Shown one piece after another: positions 1-43,629 of a stretch of 64,000 nucleotides of DNA. The position numbers were made by a program, and so were the translations under genes. The notes below the pieces were generated by a model, which searched no databases, was not told the origin of the DNA, and worked only from the letters and a program-made list of their open reading frames with translations. Positions within the stretch are counted from its first letter, which is position 1. Every line of letters starts with the position of its first letter. Source of the DNA: a virus; IMG/VR virus record IMGVR_UViG_3300028025_002789, positions 1 through 64,000 of that record; one strand, 5' to 3'.

Positions 1-685
1 CTTTACCGTAGACACATAGGCCACATGATACGCAGGCGGAACCAGCGGAAGAAATAAGCGGAATACTCTTCATATTCTCAGGACACTTAGCCCCAGGCTT
101 ACCCGTTAATTCTTTCATAGTACTTTCAGTAACAGCGAATGTCTTGCCTAGATAAGCCAGGCGGACACCGTCATTAAGTTTTAAATCATGAGCAATAGTT
201 TTATTCTCATCATCCGTTGAATAATAAAGTGATAGATTAGAAATATCTTTAAGGATTAATGCTGCAGACTTAACTCGTGTATATACCCAAAATTGAATAT
301 CTGAATTCTGATCAATCACAGTCTTCCACGCATATGCGTACGTGTCATTAAAGAAATCTCCGTCCCAGTGGATACGGAATAATAACTTAGCATTGCGCTT
401 CTCGCAATCCTTGCGAAAGTCTGCAATCATAGATTCAATTAAGTTAACCATGGTAGGACCGTCGGCGTCCTTTAATAAATTCCAATTATGCATGAGCACA
501 TTGCGAACGCCCTTATATACTTTTTCTAACTTACCCGCATAACATACGCTTTCGCAAATACTAGTAGCGCCAGGGCATGAGAATGCTTTACCTGCAGGCA
601 GGCCAAAGGTATTAGCAATTGTAGGAGTTTTACCGTTAGGGGAAACGGCATTCGTTACTTTACGGTCCATTGAGCGCTTTAACAT
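1..685 (-). CDS. Gp88-like Cys-rich (putative Fe-S) phage protein, runs off the left edge; leaderless
   Basis: Not in ORF track. Manual translation MLKRSMDRKV...SCPGATSICESVCYAG...FRIHWDGDF...FWVYTR...CVSCGLC; ATG lies 7 nt after TATAAT. Confidence 0.8.
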   Translation of the reverse strand, partial: MLKRSMDRKVTNAVSPNGKTPTIANTFGLPAGKAFSCPGATSICESVCYAGKLEKVYKGVRNVLMHNWNLLKDADGPTMVNLIESMIADFRKDCEKRNAKLLFRIHWDGDFFNDTYAYAWKTVIDQNSDIQFWVYTRVKSAALILKDISNLSLYYSTDDENKTIAHDLKLNDGVRLAYLGKTFAVTESTMKELTGKPGAKCPENMKSIPLISSAGSACVSCGLCVYGK

Positions 686-692
686 GGGCCCA

Positions 693-714
693 ATTATAGC
701 AGGAGACACTGACA
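693..714 (-). promoter_or_regulatory. PafBC/RecA-NDp-type promoter
   Basis: TGTCAG-tgtctcctgc-TATAAT. Confidence 0.8.
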
Positions 715-858
715 TTATAAGTCCCCCATTTCTGCATCCGCCATGCGTGACATCATGCGCCACATATCTTGCTTAATAGCATCGTCGGAACCATAGAGAG
801 ATCCATCGCAATCATTCATTTCATGACCGCAGCAAGGAAAATCTTCGCAAGTATTCAT
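715..858 (-). CDS. small Cys-rich hypothetical protein (CEDFPCCGH)
   Basis: Start moved to ATG 858, downstream of promoter 887-908 and SD CGAAAGG; 47 aa. Confidence 0.7.
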   Translation of the reverse strand: MNTCEDFPCCGHEMNDCDGSLYGSDDAIKQDMWRMMSRMADAEMGDL

Positions 859-886
859 TAGTTGACCTTTCGTTGGAGAGGTTGAA

Positions 887-908
887 AGTATAACAGATCT
901 AACTGACA
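887..908 (-). promoter_or_regulatory. PafBC/RecA-NDp-type promoter
   Basis: TGTCAG-ttagatctgt-TATACT; also TTGGAA 17 bp upstream of the -10. Confidence 0.8.
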
Positions 909-947
909 TTTCCAATACGACACGCCGATTTCAGGGCATTATTTATA

Positions 948-963
948 TGTGTCTTAAATCACA
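948..963. promoter_or_regulatory. CRP/GlxR-like box
   Basis: TGTGT-N6-TCACA. Confidence 0.6.
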
Positions 964-967
964 AAAT

Positions 968-989
968 GCCCCCTCACATCTGTGGGCGC
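968..989. repeat. GCCCCCNCA-N3/4-CTGTGGGCGC repeat, copy 1 of 4
   Basis: gccccctcacatctgtgggcgc; other copies at 3413, 4569, 5110. Confidence 0.8.
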
Positions 990-1006
990 ATTTGTCGATA
1001 AAAGGG

Positions 1007-1034
1007 AAATGGGGCGGGAAGAACCCGCCCCAAG
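1007..1034 (-). terminator. intrinsic terminator
   Basis: GGGGCGGG-ttctt-CCCGCCCC-attt just downstream of CDS 1038..1295. Confidence 0.65.
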
Positions 1035-1037
1035 CCT

Positions 1038-1295
1038 TTAATTTATACTGATACTTAGTTTATTAGGTATAAGAGATTTAACAAACTGTATAGTTTCCAT
1101 TGGTAGGAAAATTGCGGTTGTCTTTTTCTTTTTTAGATTATCAAACACAAACGCTTTTACATTTCCGTCAAACCTTTTTAGATTTGAGAACACAATCTCT
1201 CTTAGGTATTCTTGGTCAACACCTTGTTCAGAGTAGATAGTTAAATCATTTGACTTTACTTCGTCATAGATTTCAATACGAAATCTTTCTGCCAT
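1038..1295 (-). CDS. hypothetical protein
   Basis: ORF with AAAGGAAAG SD. Confidence 0.75.
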   Translation of the reverse strand: MAERFRIEIYDEVKSNDLTIYSEQGVDQEYLREIVFSNLKRFDGNVKAFVFDNLKKKKTTAIFLPMETIQFVKSLIPNKLSISIN

Positions 1296-1323
1296 TGTCT
1301 TTCCTTTGTTAGTAGGGATAGGA

Positions 1324-1362
1324 AGTATAACATAGGGGGCTAGATTTTGTCTAGCCCCCTAT
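1324..1362 (-). terminator. hairpin overlapping a TAGACA-18-TATACT promoter
   Basis: ATAGGGGGCTAGA-ttttg-TCTAGCCCCCTAT inverted repeat. Confidence 0.55.
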
Positions 1363-1366
1363 AAGA

Positions 1367-1549
1367 TTATGCGCCGATTTTTACCATAGCCCAACGCAAA
1401 CCATTTTCTGTATTAAGCCCCAGCTTTGTTAATGTAGGGCGAATAGAAATGATCTCGCTGATTGTGCCAGTAATGCCAGACTTGCCTGTGGTGAATACAT
1501 CGCCTTTACGATAGAAGCGACCCTTAGCGGTATCTAGAATTGGTGACAT
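1367..1549 (-). CDS. small beta-rich (SH3-like) hypothetical protein
   Basis: ORF with SD; similar to 2165..2320. Confidence 0.7.
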   Translation of the reverse strand: MSPILDTAKGRFYRKGDVFTTGKSGITGTISEIISIRPTLTKLGLNTENGLRWAMVKIGA

Positions 1550-1577
1550 TTTATTTCCTTTCGTTAGTTGGTGTGTG

Positions 1578-1604
1578 TGAGCAGTTTTTAGACTTGCTCA
1601 GGTC
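1578..1604 (-). other. predicted H-type RNA pseudoknot, intergenic
   Basis: GAC-C-UGAGCA-A-GUC-UAAAAAC-UGCUCA. Confidence 0.5.
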
Positions 1605-1616
1605 GTTGCTTGTTAT

Positions 1617-2039
1617 TTATAGATAACGAGCAATAGCGTTGTATGTGGAAGCATTTACTGTTTCCTCGTCGGTCATTTTAAGAATACGAATAGCGTTTTC
1701 CATCTCATCTTTCATCTCACGATAAGTGTGCTGATGGATAGTTTCGTAGTCCTTTTCAGGTTCTTTTGGAAAATCTTTCTCATCAACTGTTAGGTCAAAA
1801 TCAACATTGAGAGTTTTGTTCCAAGAACGATAGTTGGTGCGTAGGTTTTCAGCCTTTGAGAATTGACCAATAGCCCACTTCCCAATTTCTTTTTTCCACG
1901 CTTCCATCTTTTTGTTAAACTTTGCCTCGTTTTCATCTTGCTTTGCGTAGTCAGCATTTAGTTGTGCTAACTTTGCTTCTAAGGCTTTAATAACCTTATC
2001 AGTAGCAATTTTTACCTGTATTGCTTTACCTCTAGCCAT
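1617..2039 (-). CDS. hypothetical coiled-coil protein
   Basis: 140-aa ORF, SD CGAAAGGG, own promoter. Confidence 0.85.
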   Translation of the reverse strand: MARGKAIQVKIATDKVIKALEAKLAQLNADYAKQDENEAKFNKKMEAWKKEIGKWAIGQFSKAENLRTNYRSWNKTLNVDFDLTVDEKDFPKEPEKDYETIHQHTYREMKDEMENAIRILKMTDEETVNASTYNAIARYL

Positions 2040-2069
2040 TTGTATTTCCCTTTCGTTGGTTGTTGGAGT

Positions 2070-2091
2070 ATTGTATCAGTTGCCACCGACA
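2070..2091 (-). promoter_or_regulatory. PafBC/RecA-NDp-type promoter
   Basis: TGTCGG-tggcaactga-TACAAT. Confidence 0.85.
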
Positions 2092-2101
2092 CAAATAGTG
2101 T

Positions 2102-2149
2102 GAGAGTTCTTACTTACGACATTGGGCGAGATACTCTCTAAACTGCCCC
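2102..2149 (+). other. predicted RNA pseudoknot, intergenic
   Basis: GAGAGU..GGGCG..ACUCUC-UAAAC-UGCCC. Confidence 0.4.
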
Positions 2150-2164
2150 TGTTTCGTTATTCAG

Positions 2165-2320
2165 TTATTTAGCAGGTGCGCTTGTCCAGCGTTCCTTACC
2201 ATTTACATCAAGCAGGATACGATTTGTTCCGCTAGGGTGGTTATCAACGGCTTTAATAACTCCTGTGATACCGCTTGTTGTAGTTGTGTAGGTTTGACCT
2301 ACCTCTAGTGTTGTGTTCAT
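2165..2320 (-). CDS. small SH3-like hypothetical protein (51 aa)
   Basis: Manual: MNTTLEVGQTYTTTTSGITGVIKAVDNHPSGTNRILLDVNGKERWTSAPAK; SD and promoter present. Confidence 0.75.
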   Translation of the reverse strand: MNTTLEVGQTYTTTTSGITGVIKAVDNHPSGTNRILLDVNGKERWTSAPAK

Positions 2321-2349
2321 TGTGTTTCCTTTCGTTTGGTTATAGCAGT

Positions 2350-2371
2350 ATTATAGTGGATACCACCGACA
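2350..2371 (-). promoter_or_regulatory. PafBC/RecA-NDp-type promoter
   Basis: TGTCGG-tggtatccac-TATAAT. Confidence 0.85.
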
Positions 2372-2399
2372 TTTCCCCTCATTTCGTAGGGGAGTGTCG

Positions 2400-2415
2400 T
2401 GTGAGATACATCACA
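2400..2415. promoter_or_regulatory. CRP/GlxR box (perfect)
   Basis: TGTGA-gataca-TCACA. Confidence 0.75.
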
Positions 2416-2551
2416 AGTATTCGGTTAGGTCGCCGTCCATAATCTCAGATACTGATACGCCTTCGAGTTCGGCGATAGCATCCCATAGTTCAGCTTCGGT
2501 ATAGTTTCCATCAGGATACCAATCAGATAAGATAGAATAAAGATTATTCAT
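2411..2551 (-). CDS. small acidic hypothetical protein (46 aa)
   Basis: Manual: MNNLYSILSDWYPDGNYTEAELWDAIAELEGVSVSEIMDGDLTEYL; SD GGAGG; overlaps upstream stop. Confidence 0.7.
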   Translation of the reverse strand: MNNLYSILSDWYPDGNYTEAELWDAIAELEGVSVSEIMDGDLTEYL

Positions 2552-2819
2552 AGTAGTCCTCCTGTGGTAGCCACGCATCTAGGTGGTGCTGCTCAATAAT
2601 TGCGGAAGCAGGTGCAAACTTACTTCCTCGATAAGATACGCCTTCGGGCATTTCGATCATTTTGTTATAGTCCTCATCATAGTATGCGTCAATAGCATCT
2701 ATGCAAGGTTGCACCATAGATAGCGGAACGGGTGGGTAGTGATTACCCTGCAAGTGATAGCCTATTGCCATCTCTAAATCTAATTCCTCAGATAAACTTA
2801 CTGCTGTGTTGTATCCCAT
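2544..2819 (-). CDS. hypothetical protein (HLQGNHYPP motif)
   Basis: ORF in leftward operon. Confidence 0.8.
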   Translation of the reverse strand: MGYNTAVSLSEELDLEMAIGYHLQGNHYPPVPLSMVQPCIDAIDAYYDEDYNKMIEMPEGVSYRGSKFAPASAIIEQHHLDAWLPQEDYYE

Positions 2820-3095
2820 TTATTCGTTCTCCTCTAAGATAGTTTCTGATAGGTTGTCCATTTCGGCTATTGTATCGCATAGCACCGACATTTCTGATTC
2901 TGTTAGTAATACCTTAGTAATTCCATCGGCTACCTTGCTAGATAGGGCGGCAGAATACATAAATAGATACCTGGCGAATACATCATCAGATAATTCATTT
3001 CTGCGTGTGTGTAATTCACCCGCAAGCCCCATTATCTCATCGTCAAACACGCTATCTTTAGTAACCGATAATAACTCTAATGCAGTAGATAACAT
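2820..3095 (-). CDS. acidic hypothetical protein
   Basis: ORF, translationally coupled. Confidence 0.8.
   Translation of the reverse strand: MLSTALELLSVTKDSVFDDEIMGLAGELHTRRNELSDDVFARYLFMYSAALSSKVADGITKVLLTESEMSVLCDTIAEMDNLSETILEENE
2869..2890 (-). promoter_or_regulatory. PafBC/RecA-NDp-type promoter embedded in a CDS
   Basis: TGTCGG-tgctatgcga-TACAAT, about 50 bp upstream of ATG 2819. Confidence 0.75.
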
Positions 3096-3301
3096 TATTT
3101 AGCCACCTTTAACTTTGCCCAAGAGGTACCTTCATTTAATTCGTTAATAGTTGGTTGGATAATAGGCACTAGATGGTCTTTCAATAAGCCTTCTAGAATA
3201 GCAGTTATTTCATCTTTCCCCAAGGCAAGTAATCGAATTGCGCTAGGGTGTGTTTCGTCAAACTCAGTTACGAATTTGAGATAGTGTTCTACTTTTTTCA
3301 T
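3095..3301 (-). CDS. hypothetical protein
   Basis: Start moved to ATG 3301 (MKKVEH), after SD CGAAAGG and promoter 3331-3352. Confidence 0.75.
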   Translation of the reverse strand: MKKVEHYLKFVTEFDETHPSAIRLLALGKDEITAILEGLLKDHLVPIIQPTINELNEGTSWAKLKVAK

Positions 3302-3330
3302 TTGTAGCCTTTCGTTGTTGGGATGAGAGT

Positions 3331-3352
3331 ATTTTAGCATAGGCTACCGACA
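3331..3352 (-). promoter_or_regulatory. PafBC/RecA-NDp-type promoter
   Basis: TGTCGG-tagcctatgc-TAAAAT. Confidence 0.85.
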
Positions 3353-3379
3353 TTTTTTGCAACACGCCTCAAAATCCAG

Positions 3380-3395
3380 GGTGTTTTATATCACA
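3380..3395. promoter_or_regulatory. CRP/GlxR-like box
   Basis: GGTGT-tttata-TCACA. Confidence 0.5.
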
Positions 3396-3412
3396 CTCTT
3401 AACGACACGCCC

Positions 3413-3434
3413 GACCCCGCACCTCTGTGGGCGC
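3413..3434. repeat. GCCCCCNCA-N3/4-CTGTGGGCGC repeat, copy 2
   Basis: gaccccgcacctctgtgggcgc. Confidence 0.8.
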
Positions 3435-3473
3435 AGCTGGCGATCTTGTCAAATCGCCACGCCGTTTATTTAA

Positions 3474-3662
3474 TTACACACGCCCAAAAATTGTTGTGTA
3501 ATTACTCGCCTCGTGAAATCTCACGACATCAAATCGCTCATTATCTTTAGCAAACATTTCAGCAAAATCATTTACCATTTTAGAAAATAAAGCAGGGTGA
3601 GTTTTATTGCTCGCATACTTTAAAATTTCTGCGGTTGCGATGTAATCTTTTCTAGTCATCAT
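3474..3662 (-). CDS. hypothetical protein (MTRKDY...RFD..RF type)
   Basis: ORF with ATGA coupling. Confidence 0.8.
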   Translation of the reverse strand: MMTRKDYIATAEILKYASNKTHPALFSKMVNDFAEMFAKDNERFDVVRFHEASNYTTIFGRV

Positions 3663-3862
3663 CGTTTTACTACCTTTCCATTTCGGTGAAAAATCTTAGT
3701 GTAACATTTACCGCTAGGGGTAAATAAGTTAATTGTTGAGTATTCATCAGCGAAGCCCCAGTCAATAAACTTAGCAAACTCTTCGTGTGCGTTTAATTCG
3801 TCTGAGTATTCTTTACTCCAATGAATTGCGTTTTCATCATTAGCAACAGTTATCTTATACAT
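3659..3862 (-). CDS. hypothetical protein
   Basis: Start moved to ATG 3862 (MYKITV), coupled to the upstream TAA. Confidence 0.75.
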   Translation of the reverse strand: MYKITVANDENAIHWSKEYSDELNAHEEFAKFIDWGFADEYSTINLFTPSGKCYTKIFHRNGKVVKR

Positions 3863-3993
3863 TAGATACCCCACATTTCTAGAGCGCAATCGCAACTCTC
3901 TACATCATAATTGTTTTCATCGCCAAAGAAAATAAATCCAGCACCGCCACACTCATCGCAAGCGACCCCGATTATTTCTATTAAGTTTCCCAT
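3862..3993 (-). CDS. small Zn-finger-like protein (CDECGGAG...CDC), 43 aa
   Basis: Manual translation; SD CGAAAGG; promoter 4026-4047. Confidence 0.7.
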   Translation of the reverse strand: MGNLIEIIGVACDECGGAGFIFFGDENNYDVESCDCALEMWGI

Positions 3994-4025
3994 TTTAGTT
4001 TTCCTTTCGTGTTTTGTTATTAGTA

Positions 4026-4047
4026 ATTATAGCCTAAGCCACCGACA
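4026..4047 (-). promoter_or_regulatory. PafBC/RecA-NDp-type promoter
   Basis: TGTCGG-tggcttaggc-TATAAT. Confidence 0.85.
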
Positions 4048-4067
4048 ATTTCGGGGAACGACACGCC

Positions 4068-4190
4068 CTAAAGCGCACCTTCCTGAAATAAGCCGATTTC
4101 TAAATCCAGTAATTCTTGCGGGTTGGCTTCGGATAAATCTACCCAGCCAGCACCTTGCTCATCTAATCTAAAAATTTCAATGTATCCCAT
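4068..4190 (-). CDS. small acidic hypothetical protein (40 aa)
   Basis: Manual: MGYIEIFRLDEQGAGWVDLSEANPQELLDLEIGLFQEGAL. Confidence 0.65.
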   Translation of the reverse strand: MGYIEIFRLDEQGAGWVDLSEANPQELLDLEIGLFQEGAL

Positions 4191-4192
4191 TA

Positions 4193-4384
4193 TTATTCAC
4201 CAACCTTTACTGCTATTGTTCGGTAAGTGTATTTACCAGTATTAGATTTAATTTGTACTAAATAACTTTCGGCGTTATCGTACCAAACAGAAGATTTTTC
4301 TGCGGAGATAATTTCACCACGCAAAGTTTTAGAGTTGTAAGTTTTACCAATTAGTAAATCTTGTATTGTGTATAAGTTAGCCAT
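4193..4384 (-). CDS. small beta-rich hypothetical protein
   Basis: ORF, SD CGAAAGG, promoter 4420-4441. Confidence 0.8.
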   Translation of the reverse strand: MANLYTIQDLLIGKTYNSKTLRGEIISAEKSSVWYDNAESYLVQIKSNTGKYTYRTIAVKVGE

Positions 4385-4419
4385 TGTTAGCCACTTCCTT
4401 TCGTTTTCGTTATGCCGTA

Positions 4420-4441
4420 ATTATAGCGGATAGCACCGACA
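4420..4441 (-). promoter_or_regulatory. PafBC/RecA-NDp-type promoter
   Basis: TGTCGG-tgctatccgc-TATAAT. Confidence 0.85.
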
Positions 4442-4490
4442 ATTTTCTACCTACTAGCCAGTAATTCCAAATAATGAGACGCTCAAGCCA

Positions 4491-4506
4491 TGTGATAAAA
4501 CTCACA
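4491..4506. promoter_or_regulatory. CRP/GlxR box (perfect)
   Basis: TGTGA-taaaac-TCACA. Confidence 0.75.
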
Positions 4507-4568
4507 AGATCTCGGGCGTGTCGCAGGATTTTCAGGGCTTTTCTTAAATCGGACATAACAGACAAATT

Positions 4569-4590
4569 GCCCCCGCAGTTCTGTGGGCGC
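4569..4590. repeat. GCCCCCNCA-N3/4-CTGTGGGCGC repeat, copy 3
   Basis: gcccccgcagttctgtgggcgc. Confidence 0.8.
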
Positions 4591-4619
4591 TTTCAGCAGT
4601 TTGTCAAGCTGACACGCCG

Positions 4620-4847
4620 TTACCCTTCATCATATTCTAAAGAAAGCGGGAAGTCATCAGACATTCCCTCATTCATAGCATCTTGATAATCTAAAAGACC
4701 TTGCTCATACATAATTGGATCACAATTAAAAAGAATCTCAGATGCGGTAAAAGTTGAGTAACCAATCTTTACATCTGGATAACATTCGTCAAGCATTGCA
4801 TCATATGCTTCTTTTATTTCAAGAGCGATTTCAAAATCTGTTTTCAT
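4620..4847 (-). CDS. highly acidic hypothetical protein
   Basis: 75 aa with 19 D/E and 3 K. Confidence 0.8.
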   Translation of the reverse strand: MKTDFEIALEIKEAYDAMLDECYPDVKIGYSTFTASEILFNCDPIMYEQGLLDYQDAMNEGMSDDFPLSLEYDEG

Positions 4848-4957
4848 TATTTATTTCCTTTCAATGACTCTGCATAAGCAGGGTCGGAAACTGAGTCCGC
4901 ACCAAACTCCTCGTAGATTTCTAGATAGATTTCATCATAGTATTCGTTATAGTCCAT
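4847..4957 (-). CDS. small acidic hypothetical protein (36 aa)
   Basis: Manual: MDYNEYYDEIYLEIYEEFGADSVSDPAYAESLKGNK; TAATG coupling. Confidence 0.65.
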   Translation of the reverse strand: MDYNEYYDEIYLEIYEEFGADSVSDPAYAESLKGNK

Positions 4958-4993
4958 AAGTTGAACCAACCTTTCTTTATCTTGATACTAAGT

Positions 4994-5015
4994 ATCCTAT
5001 CATAGACCACTGACA
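4994..5015 (-). promoter_or_regulatory. PafBC/RecA-NDp-type promoter
   Basis: TGTCAG-tggtctatga-TAGGAT. Confidence 0.8.
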
Positions 5016-5053
5016 TTTTGACTCATTTTTCGGGTGTGTCGGGAAAGTATTTT

Positions 5054-5069
5054 TGTGAATTGCGCCACA
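5054..5069. promoter_or_regulatory. CRP/GlxR-like box
   Basis: TGTGA-attgcg-CCACA. Confidence 0.6.
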
Positions 5070-5109
5070 TTTCTAGGGTGTTTCTTAAATCGGACATAAG
5101 GTACAAAAT

Positions 5110-5132
5110 GCCCCCACAAAAGCTGTGGGCGC
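5110..5132. repeat. GCCCCCNCA-N3/4-CTGTGGGCGC repeat, copy 4
   Basis: gcccccacaaaagctgtgggcgc. Confidence 0.8.
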
Positions 5133-5162
5133 TATCGCCTATTGTCAAGGCGACACGCCGTG

Positions 5163-5303
5163 CTATCTACCGAAAGTATAGTGAGTTAGCACACACTCCC
5201 TGCCCTCTATGGTTTGCTTACAGTCACCATAGTGCGGGGTAGAGAACAGAGAGAATACTAGTATGCCTACTAGTAACGATACATAACCTATCAGGGCTTT
5301 CAT
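5163..5303 (-). CDS. small membrane/secreted protein (46 aa)
   Basis: Manual: MKALIGYVSLLVGILVFSLFSTPHYGDCKQTIEGRECVLTHYTFGR. Confidence 0.6.
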   Translation of the reverse strand: MKALIGYVSLLVGILVFSLFSTPHYGDCKQTIEGRECVLTHYTFGR

Positions 5304-5458
5304 TACTTATTCTTCTTTCTCTTATAGATCTTATAGCCTACTACTAGTAAGGCGGTGGCAATGATGGTGTGCCAAGGTAGATAGATAGCCCCTAAGAAAC
5401 TATCTAACTCTATACCATAGTCACTAGTTATATATAACTCTAGTCCGTCTGTAATCAT
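5303..5458 (-). CDS. small membrane protein (51 aa)
   Basis: Manual: MITDGLELY...IYLPWHTIIATALLVVGYKIYKRKKNK; TAATG coupling. Confidence 0.65.
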   Translation of the reverse strand: MITDGLELYITSDYGIELDSFLGAIYLPWHTIIATALLVVGYKIYKRKKNK

Positions 5459-5643
5459 TACTTATCTCCAAACATGTTAAAGACCTCATCTATTTGGTCA
5501 TCTGTTAAGTGGTCAATCTCGATAGCCTTAGAGAAACCGAATACATCTTCTTCATCTGTTATCTCTTGCTCTGCTAATTCTTCATCTAAGTAGGTGTATG
5601 CGTCTGCTACATCTGCTTGAATAGTATCCCATTTAGTCATCAT
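5458..5643 (-). CDS. highly acidic hypothetical protein
   Basis: 61 aa with 19 D/E and 3 K. Confidence 0.8.
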   Translation of the reverse strand: MMTKWDTIQADVADAYTYLDEELAEQEITDEEDVFGFSKAIEIDHLTDDQIDEVFNMFGDK

Positions 5644-5810
5644 TACTTAGTCACCTTTATCTCTTGAATGTTAGCGGAAAACTTTTGAGCCTTACCTATT
5701 GCGCTATCGTTTAACTCTGCTACTACTTTATCAACATCTTTAATGTTAGTAGCGATGTTACCAATAGACAATAGGCGAGAGCCTTGCCATAGTGCGTATG
5801 TTATAGTCAT
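5643..5810 (-). CDS. hypothetical protein (55 aa)
   Basis: Manual: MTITYALWQGSRLLSIGNIATNIKDVDKVVAELNDSAIGKAQKFSANIQEIKVTK. Confidence 0.7.
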   Translation of the reverse strand: MTITYALWQGSRLLSIGNIATNIKDVDKVVAELNDSAIGKAQKFSANIQEIKVTK

Positions 5811-5845
5811 TTACTGTTCTTCTTTCTCTAGTTTGTTATAGTGGA

Positions 5846-5867
5846 ATAGTAGCGGATAGGGCAGACA
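5846..5867 (-). promoter_or_regulatory. PafBC/RecA-NDp-type promoter (variant)
   Basis: TGTCTG-ccctatccgc-TACTAT. Confidence 0.6.
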
Positions 5868-5889
5868 ATTACAAGCGACACGCTGTCGC

Positions 5890-6042
5890 TTATTCTGTGA
5901 CCTTAGTCACAGTAGGCAAGGAGATTAGATAGCGTAGGACACGCTTTCTATCTGCTACGGATAGCCCGTAGGTAGAGGTAACGCCACCGTTACGGTAGTC
6001 GTTCTCTATTTTCTCTAATAGAGTTTCTGTTAGTGTAGTCAT
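5890..6042 (-). CDS. hypothetical protein (50 aa), first gene of the leftward array
   Basis: Manual: MTTLTETLLEKIENDYRNGGVTSTYGLSVADRKRVLRYLISLPTVTKVTE; SD GAAAGGTGG. Confidence 0.65.
   Translation of the reverse strand: MTTLTETLLEKIENDYRNGGVTSTYGLSVADRKRVLRYLISLPTVTKVTE
5896..5911. promoter_or_regulatory. CRP/GlxR box (perfect)
   Basis: TGTGA-ccttag-TCACA. Confidence 0.75.
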
Positions 6043-6098
6043 TTTATGACCACCTTTCTTTTTTTAAGATTAACTATTTGTTAATTGCTTATAGTATA

Positions 6099-6120
6099 AG
6101 CCTAGCAGGGGGGACTGACA
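6099..6120 (-). promoter_or_regulatory. PafBC/RecA-NDp-type promoter
   Basis: TGTCAG-tcccccctgc-TAGGCT. Confidence 0.75.
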
Positions 6121-6177
6121 TTTTCAAGTCTCAAATCGGACATGTCGGACATTTTGTAAGTTAATTTTATAAATTAG

Positions 6178-6287: not shown

Positions 6288-6316
6288 TTGACTGAAATAT
6301 TTTATATTAGTATAAT
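6288..6316 (+). promoter_or_regulatory. sigma-A promoter
   Basis: TTGACT-17-TATAAT. Confidence 0.8.
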
Positions 6317-6322
6317 ACAATA

Positions 6323-6430
6323 ATGGCTGCTAATCGAATCGTTATATGTGAGACATGTGGGCGGGAAATAGAAGTTAGATCAGGCTTTGCTCACATGACA
6401 CTTGCTCGTCATATGAAAGAACACAAATAA
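6323..6430 (+). CDS. 35-aa C2H2 zinc-finger mini-protein, leaderless
   Basis: Manual: MAANRIVICETCGREIEVRSGFAHMTLARHMKEHK; ATG 6 nt after the -10. Confidence 0.7.
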   Translation: MAANRIVICETCGREIEVRSGFAHMTLARHMKEHK

Positions 6431-26702: not shown

Positions 26703-28277
26703 TTGCCAAAGCTAAAAAAAATAACTATTGTCGGCGGAGGATCTGCTGGCTGGATGTCTGCTGCTACGCTTATATCAAATTTTCCACAATATGAAATTTC
26801 ATTAATAGAAAGTCCAGAAATACCTAGAATTGGTGTTGGAGAAAGCACACAACAAAAGATAGCGGTATGGGCTAAAAATATTGGTATTAGCCATAAAGAC
26901 TTTATGGAAAAAACTGATGCTTCCTATAAATTTAGCATTAGGTTTAAAGATTTTAATCATGTTGGAGATGACGGATTTCATTATCCATTCGGCAGTATAC
27001 ATTTAGGAAACACAAATAAAGGCACAAATGAATGGGCTTTAAAAAAAATAAAATATCCAGAAACACCTAATTCTGATTTTGCAGACTGTTTTTTTCCACA
27101 AATGTCTTTAATACATAATAACACAATCAGTGAAAATAAGTATAATGTTTTTGAAGAATTTAATTTTGAAAATGAGCATGCATACCATTTTGATGCGATT
27201 AAGTTCGCTAACTGGCTTGCCGAAAATTTTGCAAAACCAAAAGGCGTTCATCATATATTAGCTACAGTTACTAAAGTAAATGTTGATGAAAATGGCGTAT
27301 CATCATTAGAGTTAGACAATGGAGATATTGTAGAGTCTGATCTATATATAGATTGCACTGGTTTTAAAGCATTATTAATATCAGAATCTTTAAAAGAAGA
27401 ATTTATAGACTATTCAAAAGGATTGCCATGCAATAGGGCTTGGGCAGTTCAAATTCCATATGTAGACAAAGAAAAAGAAATTGAAAATTATACAAACTGT
27501 ACAGCTCTAGGATATGGTTGGGTTTGGAACACACCGCTTTATTCTAGAATAGGAACGGGGTATGTTTATTCAGATAAATTTACTACACCAGAAGCAGCCT
27601 TAGAAGAATTTAAAGAATACTTAAAAAATAAAATAGACCCCATTCATGCTCCAGAAAGAATTACTGATGATTTAAAATTTAACGATGTTAGATTTAAAAC
27701 AGGAATCCATAAAAAGCTTTGGTCTAAAAATGTTGTCGCAATTGGGCTTTCCGCTGGATTCATAGAACCACTTGAAAGCAATGGCCTATACACAGTTCAT
27801 GAATTTTTAAATATTTTATCAAAATCTATTAATAAAGGCTACTATAATGAAATTGATAGAAAAGGATTTAATCATATTACTAGAAGAATATTTGAATCAT
27901 TTTTTCAGTTTGTTCAATTGCATTATAGCCTTAGCCAAAGAGATGACACAGAGTTTTGGAAATATATGACGGAGCAGGATATAGGCATAGTAGATAATTT
28001 TGACTCTACAAGAGAATTTAACAAACAGAGAATGATTGATTCAGAATATAAAGAAACTGGACCAATGTGTGTTGCTTATGGACATGGCGTAGTTCCTTTA
28101 GGAACAGAAGAGATAATTCAATATAATGATGTTTCTAATGAAGACTTAGACACCACTGTTTCTGGTTTTATATTTAAAACAAATAAATCTATTGAAAAAT
28201 GGAATAATGAAGCTAAAGACTCTATGTCTCATTACCAATATTTAAAAAAGAATTTTCATTATATGGATAAGGAGTAA
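26703..28277 (+). CDS. flavin-dependent (tryptophan-halogenase-like) halogenase
   Basis: GGGSAGW, GVGES, ASYK (catalytic Lys position), GWVWNTP, FIEPLESNG. Confidence 0.9.
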   Translation: MPKLKKITIVGGGSAGWMSAATLISNFPQYEISLIESPEIPRIGVGESTQQKIAVWAKNIGISHKDFMEKTDASYKFSIRFKDFNHVGDDGFHYPFGSIHLGNTNKGTNEWALKKIKYPETPNSDFADCFFPQMSLIHNNTISENKYNVFEEFNFENEHAYHFDAIKFANWLAENFAKPKGVHHILATVTKVNVDENGVSSLELDNGDIVESDLYIDCTGFKALLISESLKEEFIDYSKGLPCNRAWAVQIPYVDKEKEIENYTNCTALGYGWVWNTPLYSRIGTGYVYSDKFTTPEAALEEFKEYLKNKIDPIHAPERITDDLKFNDVRFKTGIHKKLWSKNVVAIGLSAGFIEPLESNGLYTVHEFLNILSKSINKGYYNEIDRKGFNHITRRIFESFFQFVQLHYSLSQRDDTEFWKYMTEQDIGIVDNFDSTREFNKQRMIDSEYKETGPMCVAYGHGVVPLGTEEIIQYNDVSNEDLDTTVSGFIFKTNKSIEKWNNEAKDSMSHYQYLKKNFHYMDKE

Positions 28278-42903: not shown

Positions 42904-43629
42904 ATGGCAATTCAAAATACAGGTAATGCCCGCAATATTCTTGTAGGAGCATCACCACTATTCTTGACAGTTGAAGATTCAACTGTTTCAGGGTATGTTG
43001 AAGACATGGAAGCAGGATCACTCAGCGCTTTTGTTGCAAACAAAAACAGATCTGTACCAGCTTTCGTTCCGTCACAATCATACACTACTACATTAAATAA
43101 CGTCGAGACAGTATCAGCAGCAACCGACACACCAGCAGGTACAAAGGGTGCAGCATACCGTAACGTAGGTTATACAAATAACGGTCTTCAAATTACTTAC
43201 AATCCAACATACGATTCAGTAACAGTAGATCAGTTGCTAGATACAGCAAAGCTTTTCAAGTCTGCGATGGAAGTTATGATCGCAACAGAAATGTCAGAAG
43301 GAACACTAGAAAACGTTCTAGTTGTATTCGGACAGAAAGCTGCAACATTAAATTCAGGAACTCTAGGATTAGAGGCAGGAGCACTTGGCTCAGCCCCTAC
43401 AGAGCGTCAATTAATTGCAGTTGGACAAGCTCCAACTACAGCAGTTAACGCAAACACAGAGCGTGTATACTATGCACGTCGTGTTCTATCTGTTCAGCAA
43501 TCACAGTTCTCTCTATCACGCAGCACACCAACAACATTCCCAGTAACCTTCCGTCTTTTGCCATCAGGTAGCTCAAGCTACGTTGGCTCAGAGTACGGTA
43601 AGATTATTGACCGTGTAATCACTGCATAA
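42904..43629 (+). CDS. major tail tube protein
   Basis: NILVGA, VGYTNNG, VDQL, FPVTFRL; strong SD; terminator downstream. Confidence 0.85.
   Translation: MAIQNTGNARNILVGASPLFLTVEDSTVSGYVEDMEAGSLSAFVANKNRSVPAFVPSQSYTTTLNNVETVSAATDTPAGTKGAAYRNVGYTNNGLQITYNPTYDSVTVDQLLDTAKLFKSAMEVMIATEMSEGTLENVLVVFGQKAATLNSGTLGLEAGALGSAPTERQLIAVGQAPTTAVNANTERVYYARRVLSVQQSQFSLSRSTPTTFPVTFRLLPSGSSSYVGSEYGKIIDRVITA

Follow-up and report, generated by a model that had tools for sequence, protein, structure and literature searches.

The promoter array in the window

Which promoter class serves the block of small genes at one end of this phage genome, and which factor reads it? The question is raised by an element, TGTC(A/G)G followed after exactly 10 nucleotides (nt) by TANNNT, that recurs in the IMG/VR virus record IMGVR_UViG_3300028025_002789, a linear record of 97.7 kb with 86% completeness and 37% GC, the first 64 kb of which form the window analyzed here. 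The element recalls the PafBC-dependent promoters (RecA-NDp, recA P1-type) of Mycobacterium and other Actinobacteria, which work by 'sigma adaptation' (PMC8635444, PMC11804915, PMC6789036).

Scanning both strands of the window with the pattern TGTCRG-N10-TANNNT, we found 10 exact minus-strand copies between 693 and 6120, together with one TGTCTG variant at 5846-5867, all of them where a preliminary description of this DNA had placed them. Seven read TGTCRGTG, as that description also had it, and the consensus of the array sites is aaaTGTCGGTG-N8-TATAAT. Over the whole window, exact matches numbered 11, where 1.16 were expected, and all of 100 shuffles gave fewer; this count is a lower bound, as the contig start cuts the array. 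The eleventh exact match lies at 43108-43129 on the minus strand, within a plus-strand gene of the structural region, where the preliminary description had noticed none; it stands at about chance level, one chance match being about as expected. Moreover, the full record holds a plus-strand match at 83874, which probably arose by chance, since it overlaps the first codons of whiB. The array sites are given below in order from the array head, with the open reading frame (ORF) that each is predicted to drive, followed by the two gene features that they accompany.

6099-6120, minus strand: PafBC-type promoter 1, at the array head, TGTCAGTC...TGcTAGGCT, also with a TTGAAA -35-like hexamer at 17 nt; ORF starting at 6042
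5846-5867, minus strand: variant promoter, TGTCTG-N10-TACTAT; ORF starting at 5810
4994-5015, minus strand: PafBC-type promoter, TGTCAGTG...TGaTAGGAT; ORF starting at 4957
4420-4441, minus strand: PafBC-type promoter, TGTCGGTG-N8-TATAAT; ORF starting at 4384
4026-4047, minus strand: PafBC-type promoter, TGTCGGTG-N8-TATAAT; ORF starting at 3993
3331-3352, minus strand: PafBC-type promoter, TGTCGGTA...TGcTAAAAT; ORF starting at 3292
2869-2890, minus strand: PafBC-type promoter, TGTCGGTG-N8-TACAAT, within the 3' end of the upstream ORF; ORF starting at 2819
2350-2371, minus strand: PafBC-type promoter, TGTCGGTG-N8-TATAAT; ORF starting at 2320
2070-2091, minus strand: PafBC-type promoter, TGTCGGTG...TGaTACAAT; 140-amino-acid ORF starting at 2039
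887-908, minus strand: PafBC-type promoter, TGTCAGTT...TGtTATACT; ORF starting at 858
693-714, minus strand: PafBC-type promoter, TGTCAGTG...TGcTATAAT, 7 nt upstream of the putatively leaderless ATG of the GP88-family gene
2-685, minus strand: GP88-family gene (PF17338), with its putatively leaderless ATG at 685; the gene runs off the contig start
1-6120, minus strand: small-gene block, the part within the window, with about 22 ORFs of 36-140 amino acids plus GP88, nearly all of them orphans

All array sites between 693 and 6120 stand upstream of some gene start. The earlier claim that each lies just upstream of a Shine-Dalgarno sequence and an ATG held for 10 sites, where a ACGAAAGG-type Shine-Dalgarno sequence and an ATG follow 20-50 nt downstream. 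The site at 693 is followed exactly 7 nt later by the ATG at 685. As the Pfam GP88 match begins at that same ATG, the GP88 transcript is probably leaderless. The ORF called mechanically at 2-763 was rejected as over-extended, its true start being the ATG at 685.

Conservation across related loci

Related loci were gathered via GP88, and 80 of at least 596 in IMG/VR were analyzed. The motif occurs 6-20 times per locus, with virtually all copies on the GP88 strand, and a reversed-pattern control gave 0-1. On the array strand of these loci, a spacing of N10 was found 1041 times, against 8 for N9 and 7 for N11, with 7 matches on the opposite strand. TANNNT stands at N10 behind 462 of the 470 occurrences of AATGTCRGT, and the family logo reads AAA-TGTC-R-G-T-S-S...TAtAAT. 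In a genome-wide scan that covered the 97.7-kb record as well as five relatives with complete genomes of 107-113 kb, enrichment was limited to one same-strand block, as the preliminary description had expected; in the relatives the motif is essentially restricted to a block of 10-12 kb with about 15-20 copies.

These numbers bear directly on the simplest alternative, namely that the array is a chance or compositional artefact. Such an explanation can claim the one or two isolated matches elsewhere in the genome, but it has to face 11 matches where 1.16 were expected, an array all on one strand within 5.4 kb, and 1041 sites in 80 relatives with a reversed control near zero. We regard it as refuted by the window count against shuffles, the counts in the relatives and the spacing controls, and give it practically no chance of being right.

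The relatives also indicate how much of the array the record lacks. In a relative that is 97% identical (L014), the block runs about 7 kb beyond GP88, taking in DUF932, further genes and six additional promoters, and ends at convergent AdoMet decarboxylase and PduO genes; PduO is among the last annotated genes of the studied record. By this comparison the contig breaks inside the array, so that about half of the array is absent from it. The whole genome of the lake phage would measure roughly 110 kb. Another complete relative (G002, 112 kb) has an IMG/VR-reported direct terminal repeat of about 3.3 kb that lies inside the promoter array and duplicates four promoters (501-2446 and 109243-111188); this repeat may be either a true terminal redundancy or an overlap of the assembly.

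Predicted start sites and promoter anatomy

Leaderless translation needs an AUG at the 5' end of the transcript. Among 794 unique units of the family, the first long-ORF start lies 6-7 nt after the -10 element in 68 and at 8-20 nt in only two, and a second, broad peak of start codons at 23-36 nt comes with a Shine-Dalgarno sequence. Given the 68 leaderless start codons, transcription would begin about 7 nt after TANNNT, which would place TGTCRG at -28 to -23. The GP88 gene itself is leaderless in some relatives and leadered in others, and in 52 distinct GP88-upstream sequences the TGTC and the -10 element are kept while the spacer varies freely.

An unbiased choice of sites, by extended -10 alone, gave 625 unique array-strand sites, 332 of which carry an exact TGTC at -16. 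One-mismatch variants of TGTC amounted to 27, near background, as the control offsets gave 8-22. The recurring variants are AGTC and CGTC alone; since both keep GTC, this triplet is the invariant core. No hexamer matching TTGACA in at least 5/6 positions was present in 562 of 674 unique sites (83%). The extended -10 motif (TGn) is missing at about half of the window sites and at 37% of the family sites, all of which nevertheless keep TGTC. Moreover, TGn is least frequent at TGTCGGTG sites (43%), against 92% at sites where other bases follow TGTCGG; as the sequences are related, these counts are not independent, and they hint that TGn and TGTCGGTG compensate for each other as two activating elements.

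Comparison with PafBC promoters

The in vivo consensus of PafBC promoters is tGTCgg(N10)tA(N3)T, with the upstream element (the '-26 element') at -23 to -28 and no -35 consensus (PMC8635444). Within it, the GTC triplet is read base-specifically, through contacts with PafB R46 and R50, and is strictly conserved in actinobacterial recA promoters (PMC8635444). The motif extends to other Actinobacteria (PMC8223512). PafBC is activated by binding single-stranded DNA and joins an RNA polymerase-sigma A complex that is already on the promoter (PMC11804915), a mode of action that fits the extended -10 seen at the phage sites.

The assignment made in the preliminary description is borne out, as the phage elements equal this consensus in sequence, spacing and predicted position, -28 to -23 (PMC8635444). 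They share with PafBC promoters the arrangement TGTCRG(tg)-N10-TANNNT with its fixed spacing, the invariant GTC, the usual absence of a -35 element and the housekeeping-type -10. They differ in being located on a phage, in standing in an array of at least 11 copies (15-20 in relatives), in preceding orphan small genes instead of repair genes, and in having an AAA tract before TGTC, mostly an extended -10 (TGn) and a near-perfect TATAAT; moreover, their PafBC dependence is a prediction.

A second promoter class outside the block

The plus-strand genes of the record are served by promoters of another kind. Ten TTGACN-16/18-TANA(A/C)T promoters were found there, those directly upstream of genes including the ones at 6288, 7822, 60313, 63672 (primase), 74473, 86257 and 91120. 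A TTGACA-like hexamer 16-18 nt upstream of the -10 is thus present before plus-strand genes and absent at most array promoters. The host polymerase would be expected to read ordinary -35 boxes, and since the plus-strand genes use ordinary -35/-10 promoters, the small-gene block is a promoter class of its own, with its own input. Canonical TTGACA and TTGACC promoters (97668 and 96795) serve the two genes that close the record (96336-97668, minus strand), so the far end of the minus-strand block uses the ordinary class. Next to the array head stand the following features.

6288-6316, plus strand: divergent canonical sigma-A-type promoter, TTGACT-17-TATAAT; it precedes the 35-amino-acid zinc-ribbon ORF and transfer RNA (tRNA) genes
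6323-6430, plus strand: ORF of a 35-amino-acid Cys/His zinc-ribbon-like microprotein, MAANRIVICETCGREIEV..., with its own canonical promoter

The zinc-ribbon-like ORF diverges from the array and abuts tRNA-Leu.

Which factor reads the box

The preliminary description had offered, as one option, that the phage encodes its own WYL factor elsewhere. This was not supported: WYL gave zero matches at E<=1 in the record and five complete relatives, and HTH_PafC gave zero at the same threshold in the record and four complete relatives. In addition, no sigma-70 region 2 was found in the record. With no PafBC-like phage gene in these genomes, a host factor is the most economical reader, and PafBC is the only known factor with such a box and geometry. 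From the sequence evidence we lean, on balance, towards a joint reading in which the array elements are working promoters for the host housekeeping RNA polymerase (sigma A) and PafBC reads the TGTCRG box as a host factor; the host would then possess PafBC.

Under this reading, polymerase would settle first on the -10 or extended -10 of the array promoters, and host PafBC, loaded with single-stranded DNA, would insert between sigma region 4 and the TGTC box ('sigma adaptation'). The insertion would raise the output of all the short units in the block, about 15-20 in number. In this way the gene block would be tied to single-stranded DNA from genome entry, end resection, replication or nuclease attack, with the other genes left to ordinary promoters.

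Several observations weigh against PafBC as the reader. Within the family, G stands at -14 in 82% of the sites (mostly as TGn) and T at -15 in 67%, beside a near-consensus TATAAT, so that, given the extended -10 at most family sites, the array promoters may fire without an activator. A TTGAAA-like -35 is also present in 17% of the family sites. In the related Streptomyces phage BillNye just 2 motif matches occur, scattered and not in an array, even though PafBC is present in Streptomyces. A block that depends on a damage signal would be an odd choice for immediate-early genes. Lastly, one contig from an RNA-library run (X20) continues through a relative's promoter. From this run, considered as assembled contigs only, short pieces fall on 1367-2756, 3837-3962 and the 4201-4500 depth bin of the block; these contigs show neither transcription starts nor whether the signal originates from RNA or from carried-over DNA.

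The first of these points suggests an alternative in which the sites are activator-independent, extended -10 promoters of host sigma A, and TGTCRG, as part of the spacer or as an upstream element, serves some other purpose, for instance as an operator for a repressor of host or phage or as a direct polymerase contact. Promoters with such -15, -14 and -10 bases can work without a -35, and TGTC-containing boxes (GCGTGTC, ATGTCCGA) recur just upstream, suggesting further DNA-binding inputs. However, the sites that keep TGTC without TGn are not accounted for, the rarity of TGn at TGTCGGTG sites looks like compensation between activating elements, and the box stands exactly at the PafBC position, not at a typical operator position. 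We consider this alternative quite improbable.

Another possibility is an activator made by the phage or delivered with the virion, like MotA/AsiA of T4, in which case the array would be a middle-class block switched on by the product of a gene with a canonical promoter, and the likeness to PafBC would be convergence or mimicry. T4 middle promoters are the nearest analogue named for the PafBC mechanism (PMC8635444). In both, an activator box (in T4 the MotA box at -30) replaces the -35 beside a normal -10; in T4, however, the phage encodes the activator, by which sigma region 4 is remodelled, whereas the studied phage revealed no such activator and its box is the same as the one used by a host activator. 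The separate canonical sigma-A promoters could drive a first wave before a phage activator acts, most phage genes are without an assigned function, and HTH_11 gave a sub-threshold match in a short reading frame of the record (73306-73368). The absence of the motif array from BillNye also fits, as the motif then tracks the phage lineage and not simply the host phylum. Nevertheless, such an activator would have had to arrive by chance at the PafBC element twice over, in its sequence of 6-8 nt and in its spacing of exactly 10 nt, the WYL and HTH_PafC searches speak against it, and the GTC-only invariance agrees with the published PafB contacts. No MotA/AsiA-type Pfam match appeared among the proteins scanned, and no search aimed at MotA/AsiA was made. 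Overall, we judge a phage-made activator unlikely, and PafBC supplied by the host remains the reading that we prefer.

The phage and its host

The record encodes one WhiB protein (39.7 bits, above the cut-off). Its portal protein shares about 60% identity with those of Streptomyces cluster BE (Stanwilliamsviridae) phages, and its GP88 is 50-55% identical to Mycobacterium phage proteins, with homologues in Streptomyces phages too. Judging by whiB, these homologues and the leaderless starts, the host is actinobacterial, in agreement with the actinophage assignment of the preliminary description; the same evidence counters a low-GC host outside the Actinobacteria (cyanobacteria, Firmicutes or Bacteroidetes). 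With cluster BE, including BillNye and Muntaha, the phage shares not only the portal but also a large siphovirus-type genome, many tRNAs, a class II ribonucleotide reductase and a GC content far below that typical of actinobacteria; it differs in its 37% GC and its freshwater origin and, from BillNye, in its array.

Metagenomes of freshwater, lake, pond, aquatic and subsurface origin, belonging to 10 studies, contain DNA near-identical to that of this abundant, uncultured phage, and a search of the phage collection revealed no near-identical isolate. The host, likewise uncultured, is probably a low-GC freshwater actinobacterial lineage. One relative found through RecA carries three NCBI accessions labelled as Candidatus Nanopelagicaceae metagenome-assembled genomes, and since phage contigs are often binned with their hosts, these labels give a weak hint of Nanopelagicaceae as the host group. 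Other routes to the host were less informative. The phage WhiB, compared with the genome collection, matched no more than two contigs, both from phages and binned into metagenome-assembled genomes of Bacteroidia and Saccharibacteria, and with the phage RecA as bait for a host RecA the best 120 matches were all phage relatives. A metagenome scan combining the motif with a recA FGKGS anchor in low-GC codons gave 12 matches, three of which are actinobacterial-type recA loci of 56-67% GC and serve as a positive control only, while the others look like loci of other phyla and are probably chance matches; no low-GC actinobacterial recA was reached in that scan.

Also encoded are RecA, DnaE, DnaB, primase, RuvC, a pyrimidine-dimer glycosylase, Hsp20, a proteasome-like subunit and PduO. 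Beyond the window, RecA lies at 69349-70353, DnaE at 65514-68780, the RuvC-like nuclease at 72686-73252, the pyrimidine-dimer glycosylase at 87447-87953 and the proteasome-subunit-like protein at 91837-92370, five functions that belong to, or interact with, the host PafBC/Pup-proteasome damage response. A full-length tryptophan halogenase homologue (PF04820, E 6e-107) stands at 26703-28277 on the plus strand, amid the genes of the structural region.

The small-gene block and its other elements

None of the small proteins of the block was given a name in a comparison with PHROGs. The terminal-redundancy module of SPO1 and the pre-early region of T5 are host-takeover or pre-early modules that use plain host sigma-A/sigma-70 consensus promoters. 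Like them, the phage block has dense tiny orphan genes, many close strong promoters, strong ribosome-binding sites and interspersed terminators, on one strand and apart from the rest of the genome; unlike them, it has PafBC-type boxes in place of plain consensus promoters. By analogy with such modules, the block may be expressed early and take part in host takeover.

Several further repeated elements were observed in the block. A cassette of about 100-130 nt occurs in 4 copies upstream of promoters on the minus strand (5060-5190, 4520-4650, 3380-3480 and 930-1010), with a fixed order: ACGGCGTGTC..TTGACAA, then a hairpin GCGCCCACAG-N-TGnGGGGGC with ATTTTGT (terminator-like), then TATGTCCGATTTAAGAAA and finally CCCTGAAA. 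The sequence GCGCCCACAG has 4 copies in the 97.7-kb record, on the array strand only. GCGTGTC boxes occur 7 times on the array strand (minus-strand 5' coordinates 5944, 5883, 5158, 4617, 4066, 3410 and 925), compared with 2 plus-strand copies in the entire record, and the reverse complement of GCGTGTC contains GACAC, a WhiA-type core. Five promoters, those at 887, 3331, 4026, 5846 and 6099, have a TGTC-containing box at a distance of 13-23 nt on the upstream side of their -26 element, being the near-variant GCGTGTT at 3331 and ATGTCCGA at 6099. A tandem ATGTCCGA-ATGTCCGA at 6143-6159, just upstream of the first promoter, resembles the -26 box without a -10 at N10, and the octamer occurs again in two cassettes (5097 and 4556).

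Moreover, perfect TGTGA-N6-TCACA palindromes, of the CRP/GlxR-type consensus, were found at 2400-2415, 4491-4506 and 5896-5911, upstream of promoters 2350, 4420 and 5846, where about 0.01 would be expected by chance per 6 kb. A 14-bp hairpin (TATAGGGGGCTAGA...TCTAGCCCCCTATG) at 1324-1363 on the minus strand overlaps an extended -10 promoter, TGtTATACT, without a TGTC box; it precedes the ORF at 1295 and is a different promoter type within the block.

Implications

The promoter class is confirmed at the level of sequence, and the observation, being family-wide, of strict geometry and joined by predicted start sites, is stronger than first stated; the interpretation as a whole is partly supported, and PafBC as the reader, the host identity and the timing are what we infer. 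PafBC-type 'sigma adaptation' promoters are known only from actinobacterial chromosomal DNA-repair regulons, and our literature searches found no paper describing PafBC/RecA-NDp-type promoters on a phage, in keeping with the novelty put forward in the preliminary description. The ideas, also put forward there, of counter-defence and of PafBC titration are speculation.

Here, in a lake-widespread phage family, one block carries this promoter type alone, with 15-20 near-consensus copies. It is possible, though doubtful, that PafBC is the master switch of this block in an abundant family of lake actinophages, so that single-stranded DNA arising at genome entry, in replication or through defence nucleases would fire the 15-20 units together, while the replicated high-affinity boxes, hundreds in each cell, may also soak up PafBC and blunt the host damage response. 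If PafBC does read the array, this would be the first virus found to plug into the PafBC pathway, it would supply hundreds of natural promoter variants with which to study how PafBC recognizes its sites, and it would connect phage infection with a single-stranded DNA alarm in a bacterial group that ranks among the most abundant in fresh water.

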